A DNA stretch of 22,102 bases, from assembly GCA_038127595.1 (NCBI GenBank), contig JAYPIC010000007.1, positions 1 to 22,102 on the forward strand, read 5' to 3'. Made by a program: the position numbers and the translations under genes. How positions within the stretch are numbered: the stretch's first letter is position 1; every line of letters starts with the position of its first letter. Below the pieces are notes generated by a model that saw nothing but the letters and a program-made list of their open reading frames with translations, was not told where the DNA came from and searched no databases. Positions 8,354-17,593 of the stretch are shown here, in pieces. The DNA is from a bacterium. Lineage in GTDB: Bacteria; Fidelibacterota; Marinisomatia; Marinisomatales; UBA1611.

Positions 8354-9841
8354 ATGAAAAAAGAAGAACCTGGGAAGTTTCCATATACCAGAGGTTTGTA
8401 CGAAAAAATGTACAATTCAAGGCTCTGGACGATGAGACAATACGCTGGATTTACCTCTGCTGAAGAGTCAAATAAAAGATTTAAATATCTTCTTGAAAAC
8501 GGAGTAATGGGATTGTCAGTGGCTTTTGATCTTCCTACGCAAATAGGTTATGACTCTGATCATGCCATGGCTGAGGGAGAAGTTGGTAAGGTCGGAGTTC
8601 CTATATCAACTTTAAATAATATAGAAACTCTTTTTAAAGGAATTCCACTGGATAAAGTTTCTACATCCATGACAATAAACTCTACTGCAGGTATTTTACT
8701 CGCTTTTTACATAGTAAATGCTGAAAACAAAGGTGTCCCATTTGCAAAGCTAAAAGGGACTATTCAAAATGATGTATTGAAAGAATTCGCTGCAAGGGGG
8801 ACATACATATACCCTCCTAAACCTTCCATAAAATTAGTTACTGATATCTTAGAATTTTGCGATCAAAATTTACCTAATTGGAACCCAATATCTATATCAG
8901 GTTACCATATTAGAGAGGCAGGAAGTACTGTTGAACAAGAGCTTGCATTTACATTGGCAAATGGCATTGCGTACATGGAAGCAGCAATTGAAAAAGGCTT
9001 AGACCCTAATAAATTGGGCCAAAGAATTTCTTTTTTCTTTAACGCCCACAATGGCTTCATTGAAGAAATTGCAAAATTTAGAGCTGCGCGAAAAATGTGG
9101 GCTTTAATTATGAAAAAACGATTTAAGGCCATAAATGAAAAGGCTATGATGTGTAGATTTCATACTCAAACAGGAGGTTCAACGTTAACCTCCGAACAGC
9201 CATCAAATAATATTATAAGAACTACCATTCAGGCTATGTCAGCTGTTTTAGGGGGAACGCAATCTTTGCATACAAATGGATTTGACGAAGCCCTTTCTTT
9301 GCCGTCAGATGATTCAGCAAAATTAGCTTTGCGCACGCAACAGATAATCGCACACGAAACTAATATTCCCAATTATCCTGATCCTTTTGGAGGAAGCTAT
9401 CTCATTGAAGAAATGACAAATAATTTTATCGAAAATTCCTTTAAAATAATAGATGAAATAGGTGAAATAGGTGGAGCATTAGAAGCAATAGAGAATGGTT
9501 GGATTGAAAACCAAATTTCTAAAAGTGCATACGAATATCAAAAAGGGATAGATGATAACTCAAATATTATAATTGGAGTAAATCAGTTTATCGATGAAAG
9601 CTCAGAAAGTGAACATACATTCCAGATTAATACAAAATCAGTAGATGAACAAATTGATTCACTCCACTTATATAAAAAAAATAGATCAAAAATTGATTTT
9701 AATGAAAAATTAAACATGCTGAAAAAAACAGCTGCTTCAAATGAAAATATTATGCCTGCTATTTTAGAATGTGTTAAAAACCAATGTACACTAGGGGAAA
9801 TTTCAGATACTTTAAGAGAAGTCTTTGGTAATCATGAGTAA
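8354..9841 (+). CDS. Methylmalonyl-CoA mutase large (substrate-binding TIM-barrel) subunit, without the B12-binding domain
   Basis: PGKFPYTRG, WTMRQYAGF, GLSVAFDLPTQIGYDSD, GTIQNDVLKEFAARGTY, SISGYHIREAG, GGTQSLHTN, DPFGGSY. Tyr in RQYAG and Arg in KEFAARG are the methylmalonyl-type determinants. No DxHxxG motif. Confidence 0.93.
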   Translation: MKKEEPGKFPYTRGLYEKMYNSRLWTMRQYAGFTSAEESNKRFKYLLENGVMGLSVAFDLPTQIGYDSDHAMAEGEVGKVGVPISTLNNIETLFKGIPLDKVSTSMTINSTAGILLAFYIVNAENKGVPFAKLKGTIQNDVLKEFAARGTYIYPPKPSIKLVTDILEFCDQNLPNWNPISISGYHIREAGSTVEQELAFTLANGIAYMEAAIEKGLDPNKLGQRISFFFNAHNGFIEEIAKFRAARKMWALIMKKRFKAINEKAMMCRFHTQTGGSTLTSEQPSNNIIRTTIQAMSAVLGGTQSLHTNGFDEALSLPSDDSAKLALRTQQIIAHETNIPNYPDPFGGSYLIEEMTNNFIENSFKIIDEIGEIGGALEAIENGWIENQISKSAYEYQKGIDDNSNIIIGVNQFIDESSESEHTFQINTKSVDEQIDSLHLYKKNRSKIDFNEKLNMLKKTAASNENIMPAILECVKNQCTLGEISDTLREVFGNHE

Positions 9842-10430
9842 TCATAATATTCAAAAAATAGGTATAATAATATCCTACCTTATCCATCCTATGGTCATAT
9901 CTTTTGTGACATTTTTATACCTTATCTATTACTCAAATATATTGATCGAAGATAAAAATTTAATATTTATACTATGCTTTACGTTCAGCACGATATCGCC
10001 AATAGCCACATTTTATTTTTTAAAAAAAAACAATCTAATATCAGATTTAGATGCTTCAAAAAAAGAGGAGCGTCTACTGCCAATGGCCTTTGGTGCATTA
10101 TTTTTTCTTCTGGGGTTTGTAACTCTTAGAATGTTGAATGCACAATTGCTAATTCAAGGCATAATGTTCTGCGGCATGATAAATGTTATTCTAGCTTGGT
10201 TGATTACAAACTATTGGAAAATTTCCATACATGCCATTACACTTTCATCGAGTATTACAATATTTTGGATATTTGGATATCAAAATGTTTTTATCGTTAT
10301 TTTAATACTTTTTATTTTAATAATTGGCCGCCTCCTAGCACAAGCACACGACTTAAATCAAATTATGGCTGGTATTTTTTTAGGTATTATATCTACCTTT
10401 ACGTGTTACACTATTTTATTTTTACAATAA
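9834..10430 (+). CDS. Multi-pass membrane protein, PAP2-superfamily-like
   Basis: About 6 TM segments. KISIH and GRLLAQAHDLNQ resemble PAP2 motifs 2 and 3; motif 1 is absent. ATG at 9834 overlaps the mutase end and is preferred to the track's TTG at 9825. Confidence 0.65.
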   Translation: MSNHNIQKIGIIISYLIHPMVISFVTFLYLIYYSNILIEDKNLIFILCFTFSTISPIATFYFLKKNNLISDLDASKKEERLLPMAFGALFFLLGFVTLRMLNAQLLIQGIMFCGMINVILAWLITNYWKISIHAITLSSSITIFWIFGYQNVFIVILILFILIIGRLLAQAHDLNQIMAGIFLGIISTFTCYTILFLQ

Positions 10431-11197
10431 TGATATTTACACAACTGATTCAAACAAATCTGCGAACAAAGGAACTTGGTAAAAAAGTAGAGTATTATAA
10501 CCGACTTGATTCCACAAACGAGGAAGCATGGGAGTTATTAGATGAAGGATATCAGCACGGTTCAGTTATCATCACAGAAAATCAAACAAAAGGTAAAGGC
10601 AGACAAAGTAATTCATGGTCTACTATAGCAGGTAAGGGTCTAGCATTTACCCTAATTCTTGATAAAGAATATTCTAATTCATTTTCCAGTTTTATTTCAC
10701 TTGCGGCTGGAATATCCATTGTAGAGTCTATTATGAAACGAGGTGTTGATTGTTTATTAAAGTGGCCAAATGATATATTTGCTTCAAATAAAAAAATTGG
10801 AGGAATTCTTTGTGAAAGTAAAATAAAAGATAAGCGTATAAAAAAAATGATTATTGGTATAGGATTAAATGTAAATGAAACAGTTGAAGAACATCCGCAA
10901 GATATACAAGATTATATTTCGACAATGTATAGCATAACAAATCATGCTCACCAAAGGGAGTTAATTGTTGCTGAATTTTTAAATAGCTTTGAAAAGTGGA
11001 TGAACAAAATTGAAGATGAACCAGCTAAAATTGTAGAGACATGGAATATCCATTGCATGCACATAAATAAAAGTATCTCTTTTTTCGACAGAGGAAAGAA
11101 AAACGAAGGTACCTTTATTGGGCTTAATGACGAAGGATTTGCAAAAATTGATATTAATGGAAAGATTGAAACCTTTAATTCAATTAATATCACTTAA
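10430..11197 (+). CDS. birA: Biotin--[acetyl-CoA-carboxylase] ligase, monofunctional (no HTH domain)
   Basis: LDSTNEEA, ENQTKGKGRQ..W, LKWPNDI...KKIGGILCE, IGIGLNVN. True start is most likely the ATG at 10430 (TAATG overlap with the upstream stop), giving 255 aa. The track's N-terminal extension is spurious. Confidence 0.93.
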   Translation: MIFTQLIQTNLRTKELGKKVEYYNRLDSTNEEAWELLDEGYQHGSVIITENQTKGKGRQSNSWSTIAGKGLAFTLILDKEYSNSFSSFISLAAGISIVESIMKRGVDCLLKWPNDIFASNKKIGGILCESKIKDKRIKKMIIGIGLNVNETVEEHPQDIQDYISTMYSITNHAHQRELIVAEFLNSFEKWMNKIEDEPAKIVETWNIHCMHINKSISFFDRGKKNEGTFIGLNDEGFAKIDINGKIETFNSINIT

Positions 11198-11674: not shown

Positions 11675-12850
11675 CTAAGAATCATAAGCCGCGATCCCCG
11701 TAACAGATTGACCTAAAATTAGTGAGTGCATCTCATGTGTGCCCTCATAAGTAAATACAGTTTCTATGTTTGTCATATGCCTCATCGGAGAATAATCTTC
11801 CATTATTCCATTCCCTCCTAATATCTCACGGCATGTCCTAGCTACATCTCGAGCCATTTTACAATGATTCCTTTTAGCTAAAGAAACTTGGTCAAATCTC
11901 ATTTTATTTTGGTCTTTTAATCTTCCAAGCTGATAAACGGTTAATTGAGCCAATGTTATTTGGGTTATCATCTCTGCAAATTTTGATTGTGTCAACTGAT
12001 AACCTGCAATTGGCTTACTAAACTGCTTTCTTTCTAATGAATAATCTAGTGCAGTTTGGTAACAATCAACCGCTGCTCCAACCATTCCCCAAGCTATTCC
12101 ATATCTAGCTTGTGTCAAGCAAGATAGAGGACCTTTAAGACCTTCTATATTAGGCAGTCTAGAACTATCAGGAACCCTTACATTCACCATTGAGAGTTCT
12201 GAAGTAACTGAGGCTCTTAAACTCAATTTACCGTGAATGTCATTGGATGTAAAACCTTCCATACCTTTTTCTAATAAAAAGCCCCTGACTATGCCGTCCT
12301 CATCTTTTGCCCACACAAGAGCTACATCAGCGAGACTCCCATTAGTGATCCACATTTTTGAACCATTAATTATCCATTCATCCCCATCTTTTTTAGCAGT
12401 AGTTGCCATTCCTCCTGGGTTTGAGCCAAAATTTGATTCAGTTAAACCAAAACAGCCAATAAGCTCACCAGCTCCTAATCCAGGCAGCCATTTTTCTTTT
12501 TGTTCATTGGAACCATATGCATGAATTGGATACATTACTAAAGAGCCTTGGACGCTTGCGAAAGAACGCAAACCTGAATCACCTCTTTCAAGCTCGTGAA
12601 GAATTAATCCATAAGCAACATTACTTACCCCTGCACCTCCACTTTCTTCAGGCAAGGCAGAACCCATAAAACCCAATTCACCTAATTTTGTTGCAATCTC
12701 TAAAGGAAAAGTTCCTTTATCAAAATGTTCATTGATGATTGGCTTAAACTCATTTGATACAAAATCATGAGCTGTTTTTTGAATGAATAGTTCTTCCTCA
12801 GTTAATAAATCTGATATATTGTAAAAATCTGGACCAATAAGTTTCATCAC
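11675..12850 (-). CDS. gcdH: Glutaryl-CoA dehydrogenase
   Basis: YGLILHELERGDSGLRSFASVQGSLVMYPIHAYGS, GCFGLTE.NFGSNPGGM, KMWITN, KLSLRASVT, GPLSCLTQARYGIAWG, ILGGNGI...TYEGTHEMHSLILG are GcdH-specific. Start is GTG 12850 or ATG 12847, with SD AGGA. Confidence 0.92.
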   Translation of the reverse strand: MMKLIGPDFYNISDLLTEEELFIQKTAHDFVSNEFKPIINEHFDKGTFPLEIATKLGELGFMGSALPEESGGAGVSNVAYGLILHELERGDSGLRSFASVQGSLVMYPIHAYGSNEQKEKWLPGLGAGELIGCFGLTESNFGSNPGGMATTAKKDGDEWIINGSKMWITNGSLADVALVWAKDEDGIVRGFLLEKGMEGFTSNDIHGKLSLRASVTSELSMVNVRVPDSSRLPNIEGLKGPLSCLTQARYGIAWGMVGAAVDCYQTALDYSLERKQFSKPIAGYQLTQSKFAEMITQITLAQLTVYQLGRLKDQNKMRFDQVSLAKRNHCKMARDVARTCREILGGNGIMEDYSPMRHMTNIETVFTYEGTHEMHSLILGQSVTGIAAYDS

Positions 12851-12918
12851 GTTATCCTAAATCTGTTAATATAAATTAATCTAATATAGTAAAAAAAGTA
12901 AACTCTGATAATTTGCGG

Positions 12919-13932
12919 TTATAACACCAAGTTTTTTTGTTCTTCTATACCCATTGAAACGACAAAAGGGTTGTTTTTTTGAGTGCTGAGAAAATCCTGT
13001 TTTGATTTCAATCCATTCCACTGCTGATTAATAAGTATTTGTGCCACTGGACCACCTAATGAATTTCCAGGCCCAAGTAACACAACATGATCTGGACAAA
13101 ATTCTTTTAATGCAACAGAAACGGAACTAGAAAAATCATATTTTTTTATAACTTGATAAGTTAGCGTATAATTATAGAGCTCACTTACATTAGTTGACCA
13201 AGGACTCCAAATATTACCTCTACCATCAATTAAAGGTATTTTAGGTTTACTAAAAATAGCTCTATCTAATTTTGATTCTGCCAAACTAGGAATTTTTTCT
13301 AATAACTCAGTGTGAAAAGCAGAATGAAAGGGTATTTGAAAAGGATATTTATCTATTTTGGGAAGTTTTTTTAGCAAATGATCTAATTGACTTTGTAAAC
13401 CTGCAATTACTAAATAACCTCCTAATTTTATAGATACTTTAGCACCTATTTTCAATATTTCTTTTAAAACAGATTCATAAAGTTTTTCATCTTTACACCA
13501 ATCATCATCAACAATGGGATAAATGATTTGGCCACCTTGCCCATTTTCATGGGTCAAAGTTCCCATTTCTTGGATTAACTTAAATCCATCTTCATAGCTT
13601 AGGGAGCCCCCTAGTGCTAACGATATGTACCATCCCATAGAATTACCACAAATAGCTACTACCTCATACTTTTGCTGATCAATTGAAAAAAAATCTTTTA
13701 AACTGCAAGCGTAAATTAAAGGAGAGGCATTTTCTCCGCTCATATGAGTTTTTGTTCGGAAAGTGCCTGAGTCTAATTCGCTTATGCTAGGTAAGCCTTC
13801 AGACAATCTTACTTTATCATGAGATCTTATTAAAGAAGTCAGACTAGAATCACTAAATGCTAAATAATTGGAAGTCTCCCTTGAATAAGATCCTCTTCCA
13901 GGGCATATTACAATTATTCGCTTCTTAGTCAT
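12919..13932 (-). CDS. FabD-fold (ACP S-malonyltransferase-like) serine acyltransferase with non-canonical substrate pocket
   Basis: CPGRGSY (cf. FPGQGSQ), GNSMG (cf. GHSLG), SAFHT (cf. AFHS), LGPG. True start is most likely ATG 13932 (MTKKRIIVICPG, 337 aa), overlapping the end of the E1 gene by 8 nt. Confidence 0.85.
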   Translation of the reverse strand: MTKKRIIVICPGRGSYSRETSNYLAFSDSSLTSLIRSHDKVRLSEGLPSISELDSGTFRTKTHMSGENASPLIYACSLKDFFSIDQQKYEVVAICGNSMGWYISLALGGSLSYEDGFKLIQEMGTLTHENGQGGQIIYPIVDDDWCKDEKLYESVLKEILKIGAKVSIKLGGYLVIAGLQSQLDHLLKKLPKIDKYPFQIPFHSAFHTELLEKIPSLAESKLDRAIFSKPKIPLIDGRGNIWSPWSTNVSELYNYTLTYQVIKKYDFSSSVSVALKEFCPDHVVLLGPGNSLGGPVAQILINQQWNGLKSKQDFLSTQKNNPFVVSMGIEEQKNLVL

Positions 13933-16141
13933 CTTTGTATAGTTTAATTGCATTATTATAGATCGATTGAATGTTAGGCAATGTTGATGTAGCAGCCATT
14001 CCAAGAGGGATAAAACTATCTTTAGCTGAATGTAATTTTACTACGATATTACTTTTTAATTTTGAATATAATGATGACATCAATCCTTCTCCGTAAGAAC
14101 CCGATCGTCTACACTCATCAACAATAAGAATTTTTTTTGATGGATGTACTTCATTAATAATTTGATCAATTTTAATATCAGACAGCCAGCATAAATCAAT
14201 TATTTTTATTTTATTGCTAATAGCTTTTTCAATTTTTGGTTTCGCTTTCAAAGAATGATAAAGACCGTTACCATAGCTGATAATCGTAAGTGCATCGCCT
14301 TCACCATATTTTACATATTCGCCAATTTCATGTTCCTCATTTGGGCTGGGGTAATTAAAAGACCACCTATTATCTTTATTTTTATGCAAATCCTTAGTCA
14401 TATAAAGAGCAATAGGCTCAATGAAAACTATAATTCTACCATTCATATAAGCATGTTTTGCTGCAGTTCTGAGCATTTTCACGGCGTCCACACCATTTGA
14501 AGGACATGCAACTACGACCCCTGGTATATCTCGAAAAATAGATAAGGAATTATCATTATGAAAATGTCCACCAAAACCTTTTTGATAGGCAAGTCCAGCA
14601 ATTCTTATAATCATTGGATTAGTATATTGGGACTTACTAAAGAAAGATAAAGTAGCTGCCTCACCCCTTAGTTGATCTTCAGCATTATGAAGGTAAGCAA
14701 GAAATTGAATTTCAGGTATTGGTAAAAATCCATTGTGAGCTAGTCCAGATGCAAATCCTAATATTGACGTTTCATCTAATGGACTGTTAAATACTCTACG
14801 AATTGAAAATTGCTCGTATAAGCCAGCGGTGATATGATAAACACCTCCCTTTTTTGCTACATCCTCCCCAAAGATTAGTGCATTATCATATTGCAACATA
14901 ATATCTATAAGGGCATAATTAATTAATTTGGCCATGCTTGCTGGTCTATTTAGCCTATTGTAATCCTTTCCAAAAAGTTTTTCTCTTTTGTCCTCATTTG
15001 GTAATGCTGGAACATCTTTCCGAATGTTTTTTGGGACTATAGATGTCATCACATCTGATGCTTTTTCTAATTTTGGTTTTAATGTTGCATGGTCAAAAAT
15101 ATAGCTTATCCTCTTTCTGCAATTTTCATATAAATCAATAATTTCATAAGAGGATAAAACTTTATTCTTTATCAGAGTTGCAGCGCTACAGAGCAAAGGG
15201 TCTTTACTTTCAGCATTTTCTATTTGATCTAGGTCCAAATAACTGAGCTCAATATCTGAACCAGCATGCCCCATTAATCTTACTGTTTTCATATGTAAAA
15301 ATACAGGAGCTCTTTTGCTTCGACAATGAGACTCCGCTTCTTTAGCAGTCTTAATGGTATCGAAAATATCTAAACCATTACAGCTTAAATATTTTAGATG
15401 TTCTTGATCAGAAAAAGTTTTCCCAATCCAATCTTTTGGTGTTGGCACAGAGATACCTAAACCATTATCCTCACAAATAAAAACTATTGGAACATTCCCT
15501 CCAATACTTCTAATCCACCTAGCTGTATTTATGCCTGAAAGAGCTGTGGCATGATTAGCGCTTGCATCACCAAAACTACATAGTACAAGGCTATTAGATT
15601 CTAATTCTTTCTCCTTGATTTTAAGGTCTCTAGCTCTGTCAATCCCAAAAGCTGTTCCAACTGCTTTTGGGATATGACTAGCAATAGTACTAGTTTGTGG
15701 AGGCACATTTAACTTTTTAGACCCAATGACTTTATGCCTACCTCCGCTAATTGGATCATCTGAAGAAGCCATGAAAGATAAAGCCATATCATACAAAGGA
15801 CTACTGCCAGGAATTTGTTTAGATCTCTCAATAAAAAATGGGCCACTGCGATAATGTAAAAAAGCTATATCAGTATATGGGAAAATATGTCCAAAAACTG
15901 CATTTGATTCATGGCCAGAGCTACCGATGGTATAAAAACATTCACCTTTCTCCTTTAGCTCTCTAGCTTTGATATCCATATGTCTACTAAAAACTTGACT
16001 TTCAAAAATAGATATTATGTCACTTGCTTTAAGGCCAAGATCTGAAATAGAATGTTTAGTTATGGTGCCCGGAAGTGAACCATTTTTCAATTTTTGTAAA
16101 AAATTTATATCAAGTATCTCAGCTCTATTGTATGGATTCAT
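13925..16141 (-). CDS. Fused ThDP-dependent 2-oxoacid dehydrogenase E1 alpha/beta
   Basis: Alpha part: FYTIGSSGHE, LHYR, ThDP motif FGDAS...FICEDNGLGIS, RLMGHAGSD. Beta part: FGEDV..KGGV...RVFNSPLDETSILG, EIQFLAY, GGHFH, FIEP..LY, IVDE. Confidence 0.92.
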   Translation of the reverse strand: MNPYNRAEILDINFLQKLKNGSLPGTITKHSISDLGLKASDIISIFESQVFSRHMDIKARELKEKGECFYTIGSSGHESNAVFGHIFPYTDIAFLHYRSGPFFIERSKQIPGSSPLYDMALSFMASSDDPISGGRHKVIGSKKLNVPPQTSTIASHIPKAVGTAFGIDRARDLKIKEKELESNSLVLCSFGDASANHATALSGINTARWIRSIGGNVPIVFICEDNGLGISVPTPKDWIGKTFSDQEHLKYLSCNGLDIFDTIKTAKEAESHCRSKRAPVFLHMKTVRLMGHAGSDIELSYLDLDQIENAESKDPLLCSAATLIKNKVLSSYEIIDLYENCRKRISYIFDHATLKPKLEKASDVMTSIVPKNIRKDVPALPNEDKREKLFGKDYNRLNRPASMAKLINYALIDIMLQYDNALIFGEDVAKKGGVYHITAGLYEQFSIRRVFNSPLDETSILGFASGLAHNGFLPIPEIQFLAYLHNAEDQLRGEAATLSFFSKSQYTNPMIIRIAGLAYQKGFGGHFHNDNSLSIFRDIPGVVVACPSNGVDAVKMLRTAAKHAYMNGRIIVFIEPIALYMTKDLHKNKDNRWSFNYPSPNEEHEIGEYVKYGEGDALTIISYGNGLYHSLKAKPKIEKAISNKIKIIDLCWLSDIKIDQIINEVHPSKKILIVDECRRSGSYGEGLMSSLYSKLKSNIVVKLHSAKDSFIPLGMAATSTLPNIQSIYNNAIKLYKDD

Positions 16142-16170: not shown

Positions 16171-16869
16171 TTATTTTTTCTTTATTAATTTAGCAGGGAT
16201 TCCGCCCCAAACTTCGCCTGCAGGGACATTTGTATATTTAGGGACTATCGCCCTTGATGCAATCACCGCACCATCGCCAATTTCGCACCCTGGATTAATT
16301 TGTGCACCTAAACCAACAAGACAATTATTGCCTATTTTTATGGGAGCAAAAACCAGCTCATTTTTTTCTGCTAGATGAGGAGTTATAATAACTTTCGAAC
16401 CAATGACTGTATTTTCTCCAATTGAAACTAAATATGGGTCATTTATACGATCACTGCTTACAAAAGAACCTTTACCAATTGTGCAACCTAAAGATCTGTA
16501 GTAAAAATCAGTTACCCATGATGGGACCATATGGTGGATACAAGGTTTTGCTAATCGATCTAAAACATTCAAAAATCCCCATCGAATAGAGGTTATTGAT
16601 AAAAATGGCACTCTAACTGAGCCTATGGAAGGTTTTAAAATAAAACTTAATATAGATGTAAGGAAAATTGTTGATAGCATCCACATAACATATGCAACCC
16701 CTGTGCTAACACCAATTAGCATAGCTCGCTCAAAATTTGAATAATTAGCTGTATTTTGAAAGATGTTTAAAAAAAGATAAACACCTGGAGCTGCACAAAT
16801 GCCCCAATGAAGTCCCGTATATAGAATTACAATAGTTGTTAAGAAATTTTGAATAATTTTCCACAACAT
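16171..16869 (-). CDS. Membrane-anchored hexapeptide-repeat (left-handed beta-helix) acyltransferase-like protein
   Basis: Two N-terminal hydrophobic stretches, then YRSLGCTIGKG, VSIGENTVIG, IKIGNNCLVG, CEIGDGAVIA, VWGGIPAKLIK. Start is probably ATG 16869 (MLWKIIQN); the track's start lies inside thyX. Confidence 0.8.
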   Translation of the reverse strand: MLWKIIQNFLTTIVILYTGLHWGICAAPGVYLFLNIFQNTANYSNFERAMLIGVSTGVAYVMWMLSTIFLTSILSFILKPSIGSVRVPFLSITSIRWGFLNVLDRLAKPCIHHMVPSWVTDFYYRSLGCTIGKGSFVSSDRINDPYLVSIGENTVIGSKVIITPHLAEKNELVFAPIKIGNNCLVGLGAQINPGCEIGDGAVIASRAIVPKYTNVPAGEVWGGIPAKLIKKK

Positions 16870-16882
16870 GATTTGTTCTATT

Positions 16883-17593
16883 TTATTTTTCTTGTGCGTC
16901 CCAATATACCTCCTGCCACAATTTAGTTGTCTCAGGAAATACATTTAACATAATCTTTTTTAAAACGCGAGCATATTCTTGAATTTCAATCTGAGCCGTT
17001 GCCTCATCTCTTAACTCAATGAAATTCATAATAGACTGAAAAGAAGCAGTCCACCAGACTTGAGTATAAACAGTCAAGGGCAAAATGCTCCTGGCTTGCT
17101 CTTTGGCCATGCCCATTTCAATCATTTTCTCATACGATTCTATTGATTTTTGTTGAGCGTCACTCCAAATTTTTTCAGCACTTTCTTGATCTTCAACCAA
17201 CCCTTCACTAGCCTGTTTATTATCACTTGATTGAGCTCGAAAATTTTCAGGAATGTAAAAATCAGAATATTCTACATACCTACCACTTATCTCATTCCAA
17301 GCATGGTCTTTGGTTGGGTGATCAGAGGTAGTTTCAATACCGACAACATGCTTATACCACTGCCTCATTACAAACTCAGGCGCTTTAATTATCATCATAA
17401 CATGTTGGTGCCTAAATGGTGAAAAATGCTTGTGTTTAATAAGAAATTTAGAAAGCCTTCTATCTTTATCAGTAAATTCTTTTGATCGTCCGCCGAATGA
17501 AACTCTCGCTGCATTAACAGGAGTTAAGTCATCACCTAAGACGTCAACAACTTCAATATAACCTTTGTCCAATACTTTTTCAATATTACTCAT
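16883..17593 (-). CDS. thyX: FAD-dependent thymidylate synthase
   Basis: VNAARVSF, FLIKHKHFSPF, APEFVMRQW, WNEISGRY, AKEQARSILP, NFIELR...AQIEIQEYA. Confidence 0.93.
   Translation of the reverse strand: MSNIEKVLDKGYIEVVDVLGDDLTPVNAARVSFGGRSKEFTDKDRRLSKFLIKHKHFSPFRHQHVMMIIKAPEFVMRQWYKHVVGIETTSDHPTKDHAWNEISGRYVEYSDFYIPENFRAQSSDNKQASEGLVEDQESAEKIWSDAQQKSIESYEKMIEMGMAKEQARSILPLTVYTQVWWTASFQSIMNFIELRDEATAQIEIQEYARVLKKIMLNVFPETTKLWQEVYWDAQEK

Follow-up and report, generated by a model that had tools for sequence, protein, structure and literature searches.

A fused E1 and a FabD-fold acyltransferase linked to glutaryl-CoA dehydrogenase: a candidate bacterial route from 2-oxoadipate to glutaryl-CoA

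To our knowledge, acyl transfer in all textbook 2-oxoacid dehydrogenases is carried out by an E2 with the chloramphenicol acetyltransferase (CAT) fold. According to the accessible part of a preprint on DHTKD1, lysine and tryptophan catabolism converge at 2-oxoadipate, which in animals is converted to glutaryl-CoA, ahead of glutaryl-CoA dehydrogenase (GcdH), by a complex of the E1 DHTKD1 (E1a), the borrowed E2 DLST (E2o) and the E3 DLD (bioRxiv 10.1101/2020.01.20.912931). As to bacteria, the text available from Thompson et al. states that the glutaryl-CoA route had not yet been observed (bioRxiv 10.1101/450254), and the portion of PMC5653290 at hand reports that in Phaeobacter label from lysine enters 2-aminoadipate and glutaryl-CoA, and names no gene for the step. 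In this study, we describe a 22,102-nt stretch of DNA (the window; contig JAYPIC010000007.1 of GCA_038127595.1, lineage Marinisomatales UBA1611, nearest relatives Marinimicrobia), which encodes a fused E1, a FabD-fold serine acyltransferase (AT) and GcdH. The E1-AT system is real, conserved and apparently undescribed: the literature searched contains no description of the E1 family, of AT or of the pair, a search whose scope left out subscription papers and supplements (such as Phaeobacter proteomics) and fitness tables, which may link these genes to lysine. If the route proposed below is correct, it would supply the bacterial step from 2-oxoadipate to glutaryl-CoA said to be unobserved.

The E1-AT-gcdH unit

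The three genes lie on the minus strand. The E1 gene (13925-16141) encodes a 738-aa fusion of alpha and beta parts dependent on thiamine diphosphate (ThDP), recognized from its open reading frame (ORF), Pfam domains, alignment and residue conservation. It is followed by AT (12919-13932), of 337 aa from an ATG, whose assignment draws on the ORF, weak FabD matches and an AlphaFold model, and by gcdH (11675-12850), of 391 aa from a GTG or 390 from the next ATG, assigned by match scores against PDB chains. The ATG of AT (13932) overlaps the E1 stop by 8 nt (an alternative AT frame, of 361 aa from a TTG, starts within E1), and the GTG of gcdH lies 68 nt beyond the AT stop. A preliminary description had reported this arrangement, together with the lack of any E2, E3, lipoyl domain, acyl carrier protein (ACP) or ketosynthase, and both observations hold among the 20 window ORFs scanned. 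That E2, E3 and GcvH are absent from a stretch of 22 kb means little on its own, because the same genome encodes them elsewhere.

E1, AT and gcdH form a conserved unit across phyla. The survey of E1 neighbours suggested in that description was carried out on 119 loci (5 genome contigs, 4 of 5 plasmid-collection matches, 30 genome stretches and the best 80 of 577 metagenome matches), of which the metagenome loci are biased to Marinimicrobia and the genomes are related. AT is found in 95 of these loci and gcdH in 64; among loci whose sequence extends far enough downstream, AT is present in 87/103, and among those flanked by 5 kb on each side, gcdH is present in 35/56. No cognate E2 is present in any of the 119, nor any homologue of E3, GcvH, LipA or LipB, with the exception of one lipoyl-like match, located before a biotin-carboxylase-like gene. 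The same association is seen in 602 sampled genomes (201 from the Marinimicrobia phylum and 401 Pseudomonadota), 33 of them E1-positive (12 and 21, respectively): AT occurs in 22/33 of these and in 0/569 of the E1-negative ones, that is, in 11/201 and 11/401 genomes of the two groups, each time adjoining E1. The order is acyl-CoA dehydrogenase (ACAD)-E1-AT in Shewanella aestuarii, LysR-aminotransferase-ACAD-E1-AT in Ruegeria and gcdH/E1-AT in Bdellovibrionales. The evolutionary distances of E1 and AT are correlated (0.85, 56 loci), but not above those of E1 and GcdH (0.90, 32 loci), and the correlation therefore reflects only shared descent.

The single E1 chain combines the Pfam domains E1_dh, Transket_pyr and Transketolase_C and contains the GDx..N motif for ThDP/Mg. 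Residues D192, H292, E457, Y483 and H528 are conserved in 77/77 aligned family members and N226 in 76/77; E457, Y483 and H528 were placed by alignment to 1W85_B, and H292, more tentatively, by its position in a motif. The protein carries in this way equivalents of Glu59beta, Phe85beta, His128beta and His271alpha. The two histidines, His128beta and His271alpha, are linked to the reductive acylation of lipoate in the section of PMC2663715 available to us, and both equivalents are kept 77/77 in the family. In the phylum, E1 is matched at 56-100% identity in 12/201 genomes, the next-best matches reaching at most 33%, and in a tree of 68 rows (after removal of 30 near-redundant ones) the family forms a clade apart from ordinary fused E1s, with support of 100. 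It is further distinguished by RH--KV replacing the RQMPxH substrate loop and by a longer beta loop, LxYQKGFGGHFH. The window E1 has no TIGR00239 match and is thus not a homodimeric E1 of the OGDH/SucA type; the E1-like database matches, at least 8000 with ordinary E1s included, bear generic labels such as 2-oxoisovalerate dehydrogenase. Ordinary fused E1s keep the Asp of a C-terminal L-D-G-P motif and a terminal Tyr/Phe in 19/19 cases each, whereas at these sites the family has Asp or Glu in 4/77 and an aromatic residue in 1/77, so that the motif is not conserved. We take these positions (Glu285/Phe324 of G. stearothermophilus) to be the surface that binds the peripheral subunit-binding domain of E2, an assignment which a literature check did not confirm. 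Four residues (114, 406, 677 and 706) differ between E1s with and without AT, but they are not used as evidence because they are confounded by two large clades. By its sequence, E1 represents a distinct family; it is likely a 2-oxoadipate dehydrogenase E1.

AT has no Pfam match and reaches only 40.7 bits against TIGR00128 (FabD; cut-off 260.9), and a separate FabD-level match is found in the same genome on contig C5. Its AlphaFold model (pLDDT 96.6) is closest to FabD/MCAT structures in the PDB, at 14-19% identity and TM scores of 0.7-0.8. In the alignment, Ser98, which lies within GNSMG instead of the GHSxG of FabD, corresponds to the FabD nucleophile, His207 to the base and Gln260 to the conserved Gln. 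R13, N97, S98, H207 and Q260 are invariant in 71/71 sequences. The place of the malonyl-binding Arg117, position 123 in AT, is occupied by Met in 70/71 and Leu in 1/71, while that of the oxyanion-loop Gln is Arg13 in 71/71. With the catalytic residues invariant and the malonyl Arg replaced, AT appears to be an active, non-malonyl acyl-serine enzyme; as a matter of speculation, Arg13 could hold a distal carboxylate. The part of PMC11775670 seen describes PksD-type acyl hydrolases that also lack Arg117, with Gln in its place, and whose oxyanion loop contains a Gln/His that is strictly conserved. Since such hydrolases share the loss of the malonyl Arg, AT could be a transferase or a hydrolase. 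Prediction of a complex between the E1 beta dimer (residues 400-734 x2), with the alpha domain left out, and AT gave a score of 0.00, which speaks neither for nor against a contact.

The third gene encodes, by a clear score gap, a glutaryl-CoA dehydrogenase: ten PDB chains of this type score 401-453 bits, and the next ACAD 253. The protein has the ACAD domains of Pfam and the motifs ELExxDSGxRS and TYEGT, which we take to be meaningful for this enzyme. The identity of gcdH and the non-malonyl, FabD-fold character of AT, both put forward in the preliminary description, are thus corroborated, the latter by the model fold, the Ser-His dyad and the Met/Leu at the Arg117 place.

E1 and AT also occur as one polypeptide. 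Five proteins of about 1130 aa are listed as in-frame fusions (P0288, P0290, P0292, P0289 and P0233, the last a 55%-identical partial one), and in P0288, P0290 and P0292 the chain covers E1 profile positions 42-730 and AT profile positions 3-328, with both active sites intact. The E1 part is 29% identical to the window E1 and scores 338 bits with the family profile versus 126 with that of ordinary fused E1s. These proteins probably stem from one fusion event, and their N-terminus, rich in Arg, Ser and Leu and resembling a mitochondrial presequence, suggests that the hosts are probably eukaryotic; P0288 gave no usable match in the ESM Atlas. In P0271, P0192 and P0272, which were discarded as fusions, the E1 match runs into out-of-frame or missing sequence, indicating frameshift or deletion artefacts.

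Metabolic context of the unit

The host genome, 95.8% complete, has GcvH as well as two E2 genes and one E3-like gene, all outside the window, and can therefore provide lipoyl carriers. An ordinary fused E1 lies next to an E2, lipB and lipA on contig C2, and an AceE-type E1 with E2 and E3 is split over contigs C18/C60; the labels lipA, lipB, AceE and E3 are our own readings of the sequence. The C2 E2 falls under the cut-off of every E2 model, SucB included, and presumably resembles that of branched-chain 2-oxoacid dehydrogenase (BCKD), so that the genome apparently lacks an OGDH partner such as DHTKD1 uses. Neither SucA, HglS nor 3-HAO is matched in this genome, and without SucA the animal-type solution of a borrowed E2o looks closed there. 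L-lysine 6-transaminase (Lat) and piperideine-6-carboxylate dehydrogenase (Pcd) are encoded adjacent to each other, both above cut-off, and lysine can consequently reach 2-aminoadipate in the host; a gene of the saccharopine-dehydrogenase family is present as well. For the tryptophan route, a TDO-like gene was found and no match to 3-HAO, ACMSD or KMO.

In other loci, the genes around the unit point in a similar direction. Pcd directly follows AT in two genomes, an aminotransferase dependent on pyridoxal phosphate precedes the unit in two loci, and a saccharopine-dehydrogenase family gene follows AT in two. Co-occurrence was assessed in 80 genomes, the 33 E1-positive ones and 47 of the 569 E1-negative ones (33 Pseudomonadota and 14 Marinimicrobia). 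In Pseudomonadota, gcdH is present in 21/21 E1-positive versus 10/33 negative genomes, 3-HAO in 11/21 versus 1/33 and Pcd in 13/21 versus 3/33; in Marinimicrobia, 3-HAO is present in 5/12 versus 0/14. From these neighbours and co-occurrences (gcdH, Pcd, aminotransferase and the kynurenine pathway), the substrate of E1 is probably 2-oxoadipate.

Compact kynurenine-pathway clusters are assembled around 3-HAO in loci L168-L174 and L178; the further members we take to be TDO, KynU, KMO, ACMSD, an aldehyde dehydrogenase and a RidA-like protein, joined in most Marinimicrobia by a short-chain dehydrogenase/reductase, which could be a reductase forming 2-oxoadipate. In 14 Marinimicrobia loci (e.g., L054:6324-7448), a homocitrate-synthase-like gene (408.9 bits, cut-off 413.55) lies between AT and gcdH, and in the host it is found elsewhere (G000:C126:741-1874). 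This places a gene for making 2-oxoadipate within a unit presumed to consume it.

As for the surroundings of the unit, a membrane-anchored hexapeptide-repeat acetyltransferase (16171-16944) is encoded 30 nt upstream of E1; its top NCBIfam match, the Pls/PosA terminal domain, is under cut-off, and the gene occupies this place only in the closest relatives. This gene, thyX and a member of the inositol monophosphatase family, all upstream of E1, represent local synteny only. The window also contains a member of the biotin/lipoate ligase family (10196-11197, from the ORF scan), on the strand opposite to the unit, and a stand-alone gene for a methylmalonyl-CoA mutase catalytic domain (8354-9841, 495 aa). 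A scan for promoters and terminators stayed at chance level (35 vs 35.1 and 4 vs 4.2).

Proposed route and rival explanations

We propose a model in which lysine breakdown, and in relatives also that of tryptophan, would supply 2-oxoadipate, to be converted to crotonyl-CoA via the three-gene unit. E1 would decarboxylate 2-oxoadipate and glutarylate the borrowed lipoyl arm of a different protein, in the host the BCKD-like E2, the E2 of pyruvate dehydrogenase (PDH) or GcvH; AT would move the glutaryl group via Ser98 to CoA, a shared E3 would re-oxidise the arm, and GcdH would turn glutaryl-CoA into crotonyl-CoA. AT would be needed where the catalytic domain of the borrowed carrier handles glutaryl poorly, and lost where the succinyltransferase E2o can handle it. 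This chain as a whole, from a 2-oxoadipate E1 through the borrowed arm and AT to GcdH, we hold tentatively, our confidence falling just short of even; granting its other steps, the transfer of glutaryl to CoA by AT is slightly favoured. In this regard, SucA is found in 10/10 E1-positive proteobacterial genomes that lack AT and in 0/26 Marinimicrobia tested, where 11/12 E1-positive genomes keep AT. The sole E1-positive Marinimicrobia genome in which no AT was found (G107) has its E1 near a contig end, followed by what we take to be a transposase-like ORF (L051:91-537). AT-less E1s are scattered over five places of the tree, two of which (L142 and L153) are nested in AT-positive groups with strong support, a pattern suggesting that AT was lost repeatedly.

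Several observations weigh against the model. AT is missing in 10/21 E1-positive Pseudomonadota genomes, where a profile search yields FabD-level matches only; Legionella adelaidensis carries E1-ACAD but no AT, and in Nonomuraea E1 stands alone within 20 kb. AT is accordingly dispensable in many lineages and no obligatory substitute for an E2, and its retention is not explained by SucA, which all 11 AT-keeping proteobacteria also possess. In Marinimicrobia, gcdH (11/12 versus 13/14) and Pcd (12/12 versus 12/14) are as common in genomes without E1, and in Pseudomonadota HglS is not excluded by E1 (7/21 versus 2/33). A mutual exclusion of E1 and HglS, considered as a possibility, was thus not seen. 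The genomes being related, such co-occurrences are patterns and not independent tests. The host itself, devoid of SucA, encodes above cut-off the alpha subunit of a 2-oxoacid:acceptor oxidoreductase (G000:C23:7554-9395), which could do the step; the otherwise invariant R135-H136-K137 loop is V-H-C in the fusions; and the loss of Arg117 in AT is, in the part of PMC11775670 mentioned above, also a mark of acyl hydrolases. The earlier proposal that AT replaces E2 thus survives only in part: it is favoured by the linkage, the lack of E2 in 119 loci, the restriction of AT to E1-bearing genomes, the fusions, the lysine/tryptophan context and the absence of SucA, while the AT-less proteobacteria speak against it as a general rule.

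The main rival explanation makes AT an editing hydrolase, stripping glutaryl or wrong acyl groups as glutarate from PDH or BCKD lipoyl arms stalled by E1, with an ordinary E2 producing glutaryl-CoA. The repeated loss of AT would suit such a housekeeping helper, as would its never being found without E1 and the replacement of Arg117 in 71/71 sequences; yet the acyl hydrolases have Gln together with a loop Gln/His where AT has Met and the invariant Arg13, hydrolysis beside gcdH would waste the thioester, and the units looked at showed no CoA-transferase, although no systematic search for one was made. We consider this explanation unlikely. A lipoate-free route, in which E1 would form glutaryl-ThDP with the help of another oxidant (or decarboxylate non-oxidatively, to glutarate semialdehyde) and AT or CoA would take the acyl group directly, fits the lack of a lipoyl gene in the loci, the lack of conservation of the L-D-G-P motif and terminal aromatic, and the fusion of E1 with AT. 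The invariance of both lipoate-linked histidines argues against it, and we know of no precedent for such a route, which seems to us highly improbable. GcvH is present in 35/35 E1-positive genomes tested, but this is uninformative because it is near-universal in genomes without E1 too (30/33).

There is also a small chance that E1 acts on another substrate (2-oxoglutarate, 2-oxopimelate, or an aromatic or branched-chain 2-oxoacid, with gcdH present through general amino-acid catabolism), or that AT loads an ACP, for example with glutaryl for biotin. The lack of SucA in the host, the database label 2-oxoisovalerate dehydrogenase and the co-occurrence of HglS in some E1 genomes would agree with another substrate, and FabD folds normally serve ACP; however, SucA is present in 21/21 proteobacterial E1 genomes, in the host an ordinary fused E1, distinct from the window E1, is paired with an E2 of its own, and no ACP or ketosynthase is found in the window or the annotated loci. 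The text of PMC7645780, as far as available, describes glutaryl-ACP as not observed in nature.

Returning to the borrowed-arm model, it would amount to a new 2-oxoacid dehydrogenase architecture, in which a dedicated bacterial 2-oxoadipate E1 has no E2 core and a FabD-fold enzyme passes glutaryl to CoA from a lipoyl carrier that is either free or borrowed, working as a route in SucA-less Marinimicrobia and condensed with AT into a single polypeptide in some (probably algal, mitochondrial) lineages. We advance this broader reading with reserve, as a possibility held with less confidence than doubt. The system is directly testable with the single-chain fusion P0288 and the operons of culturable Ruegeria and Shewanella.

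Comparison with known systems

The window E1 shares its fold, the ThDP/Mg motif and the catalytic Glu/His with the alpha2beta2 E1s of PDH and BCKD (1W85, 1UM9 and 1DTW) and with ordinary fused E1s, from which it differs by an identity of about 30%, a clade of its own, the RH--KV loop and the longer beta loop. Compared with the canonical three-component complex, its family has no co-encoded lipoyl E2 (0/119 loci). AT has in common with FabD/MCAT the fold, the Ser-His dyad and the conserved Gln260, and departs from FabD in lacking GHSxG and Arg117 and in its score below the TIGR00128 cut-off. It resembles the acyl hydrolases of trans-AT polyketide synthases (PksD/PedC) only in part, as the lost Arg117 is replaced by Met and not Gln; unlike them, it has Arg13 in the loop, no ACP or polyketide synthase nearby, and a tie to E1.

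At the level of the pathway, HglS (DUF1338) of Pseudomonas putida, in the accessible text of bioRxiv 10.1101/450254, likewise disposes of 2-oxoadipate from lysine in a bacterium, but as an Fe(II) enzyme giving D-2-hydroxyglutarate. The closest parallel is the animal DHTKD1 complex, for which the part of the preprint consulted describes the same reaction as proposed here and, as proposed for the window E1, an E1 without an E2 of its own that borrows its lipoyl machinery. DHTKD1 is, however, an E1 of the OGDH/SucA type, whereas the window E1 is an alpha/beta fusion of the PDH/BCKD type and, being of a different E1 class, is not a member of the DHTKD1 complex; the animal system has no FabD-fold partner, and the window host has no SucA.

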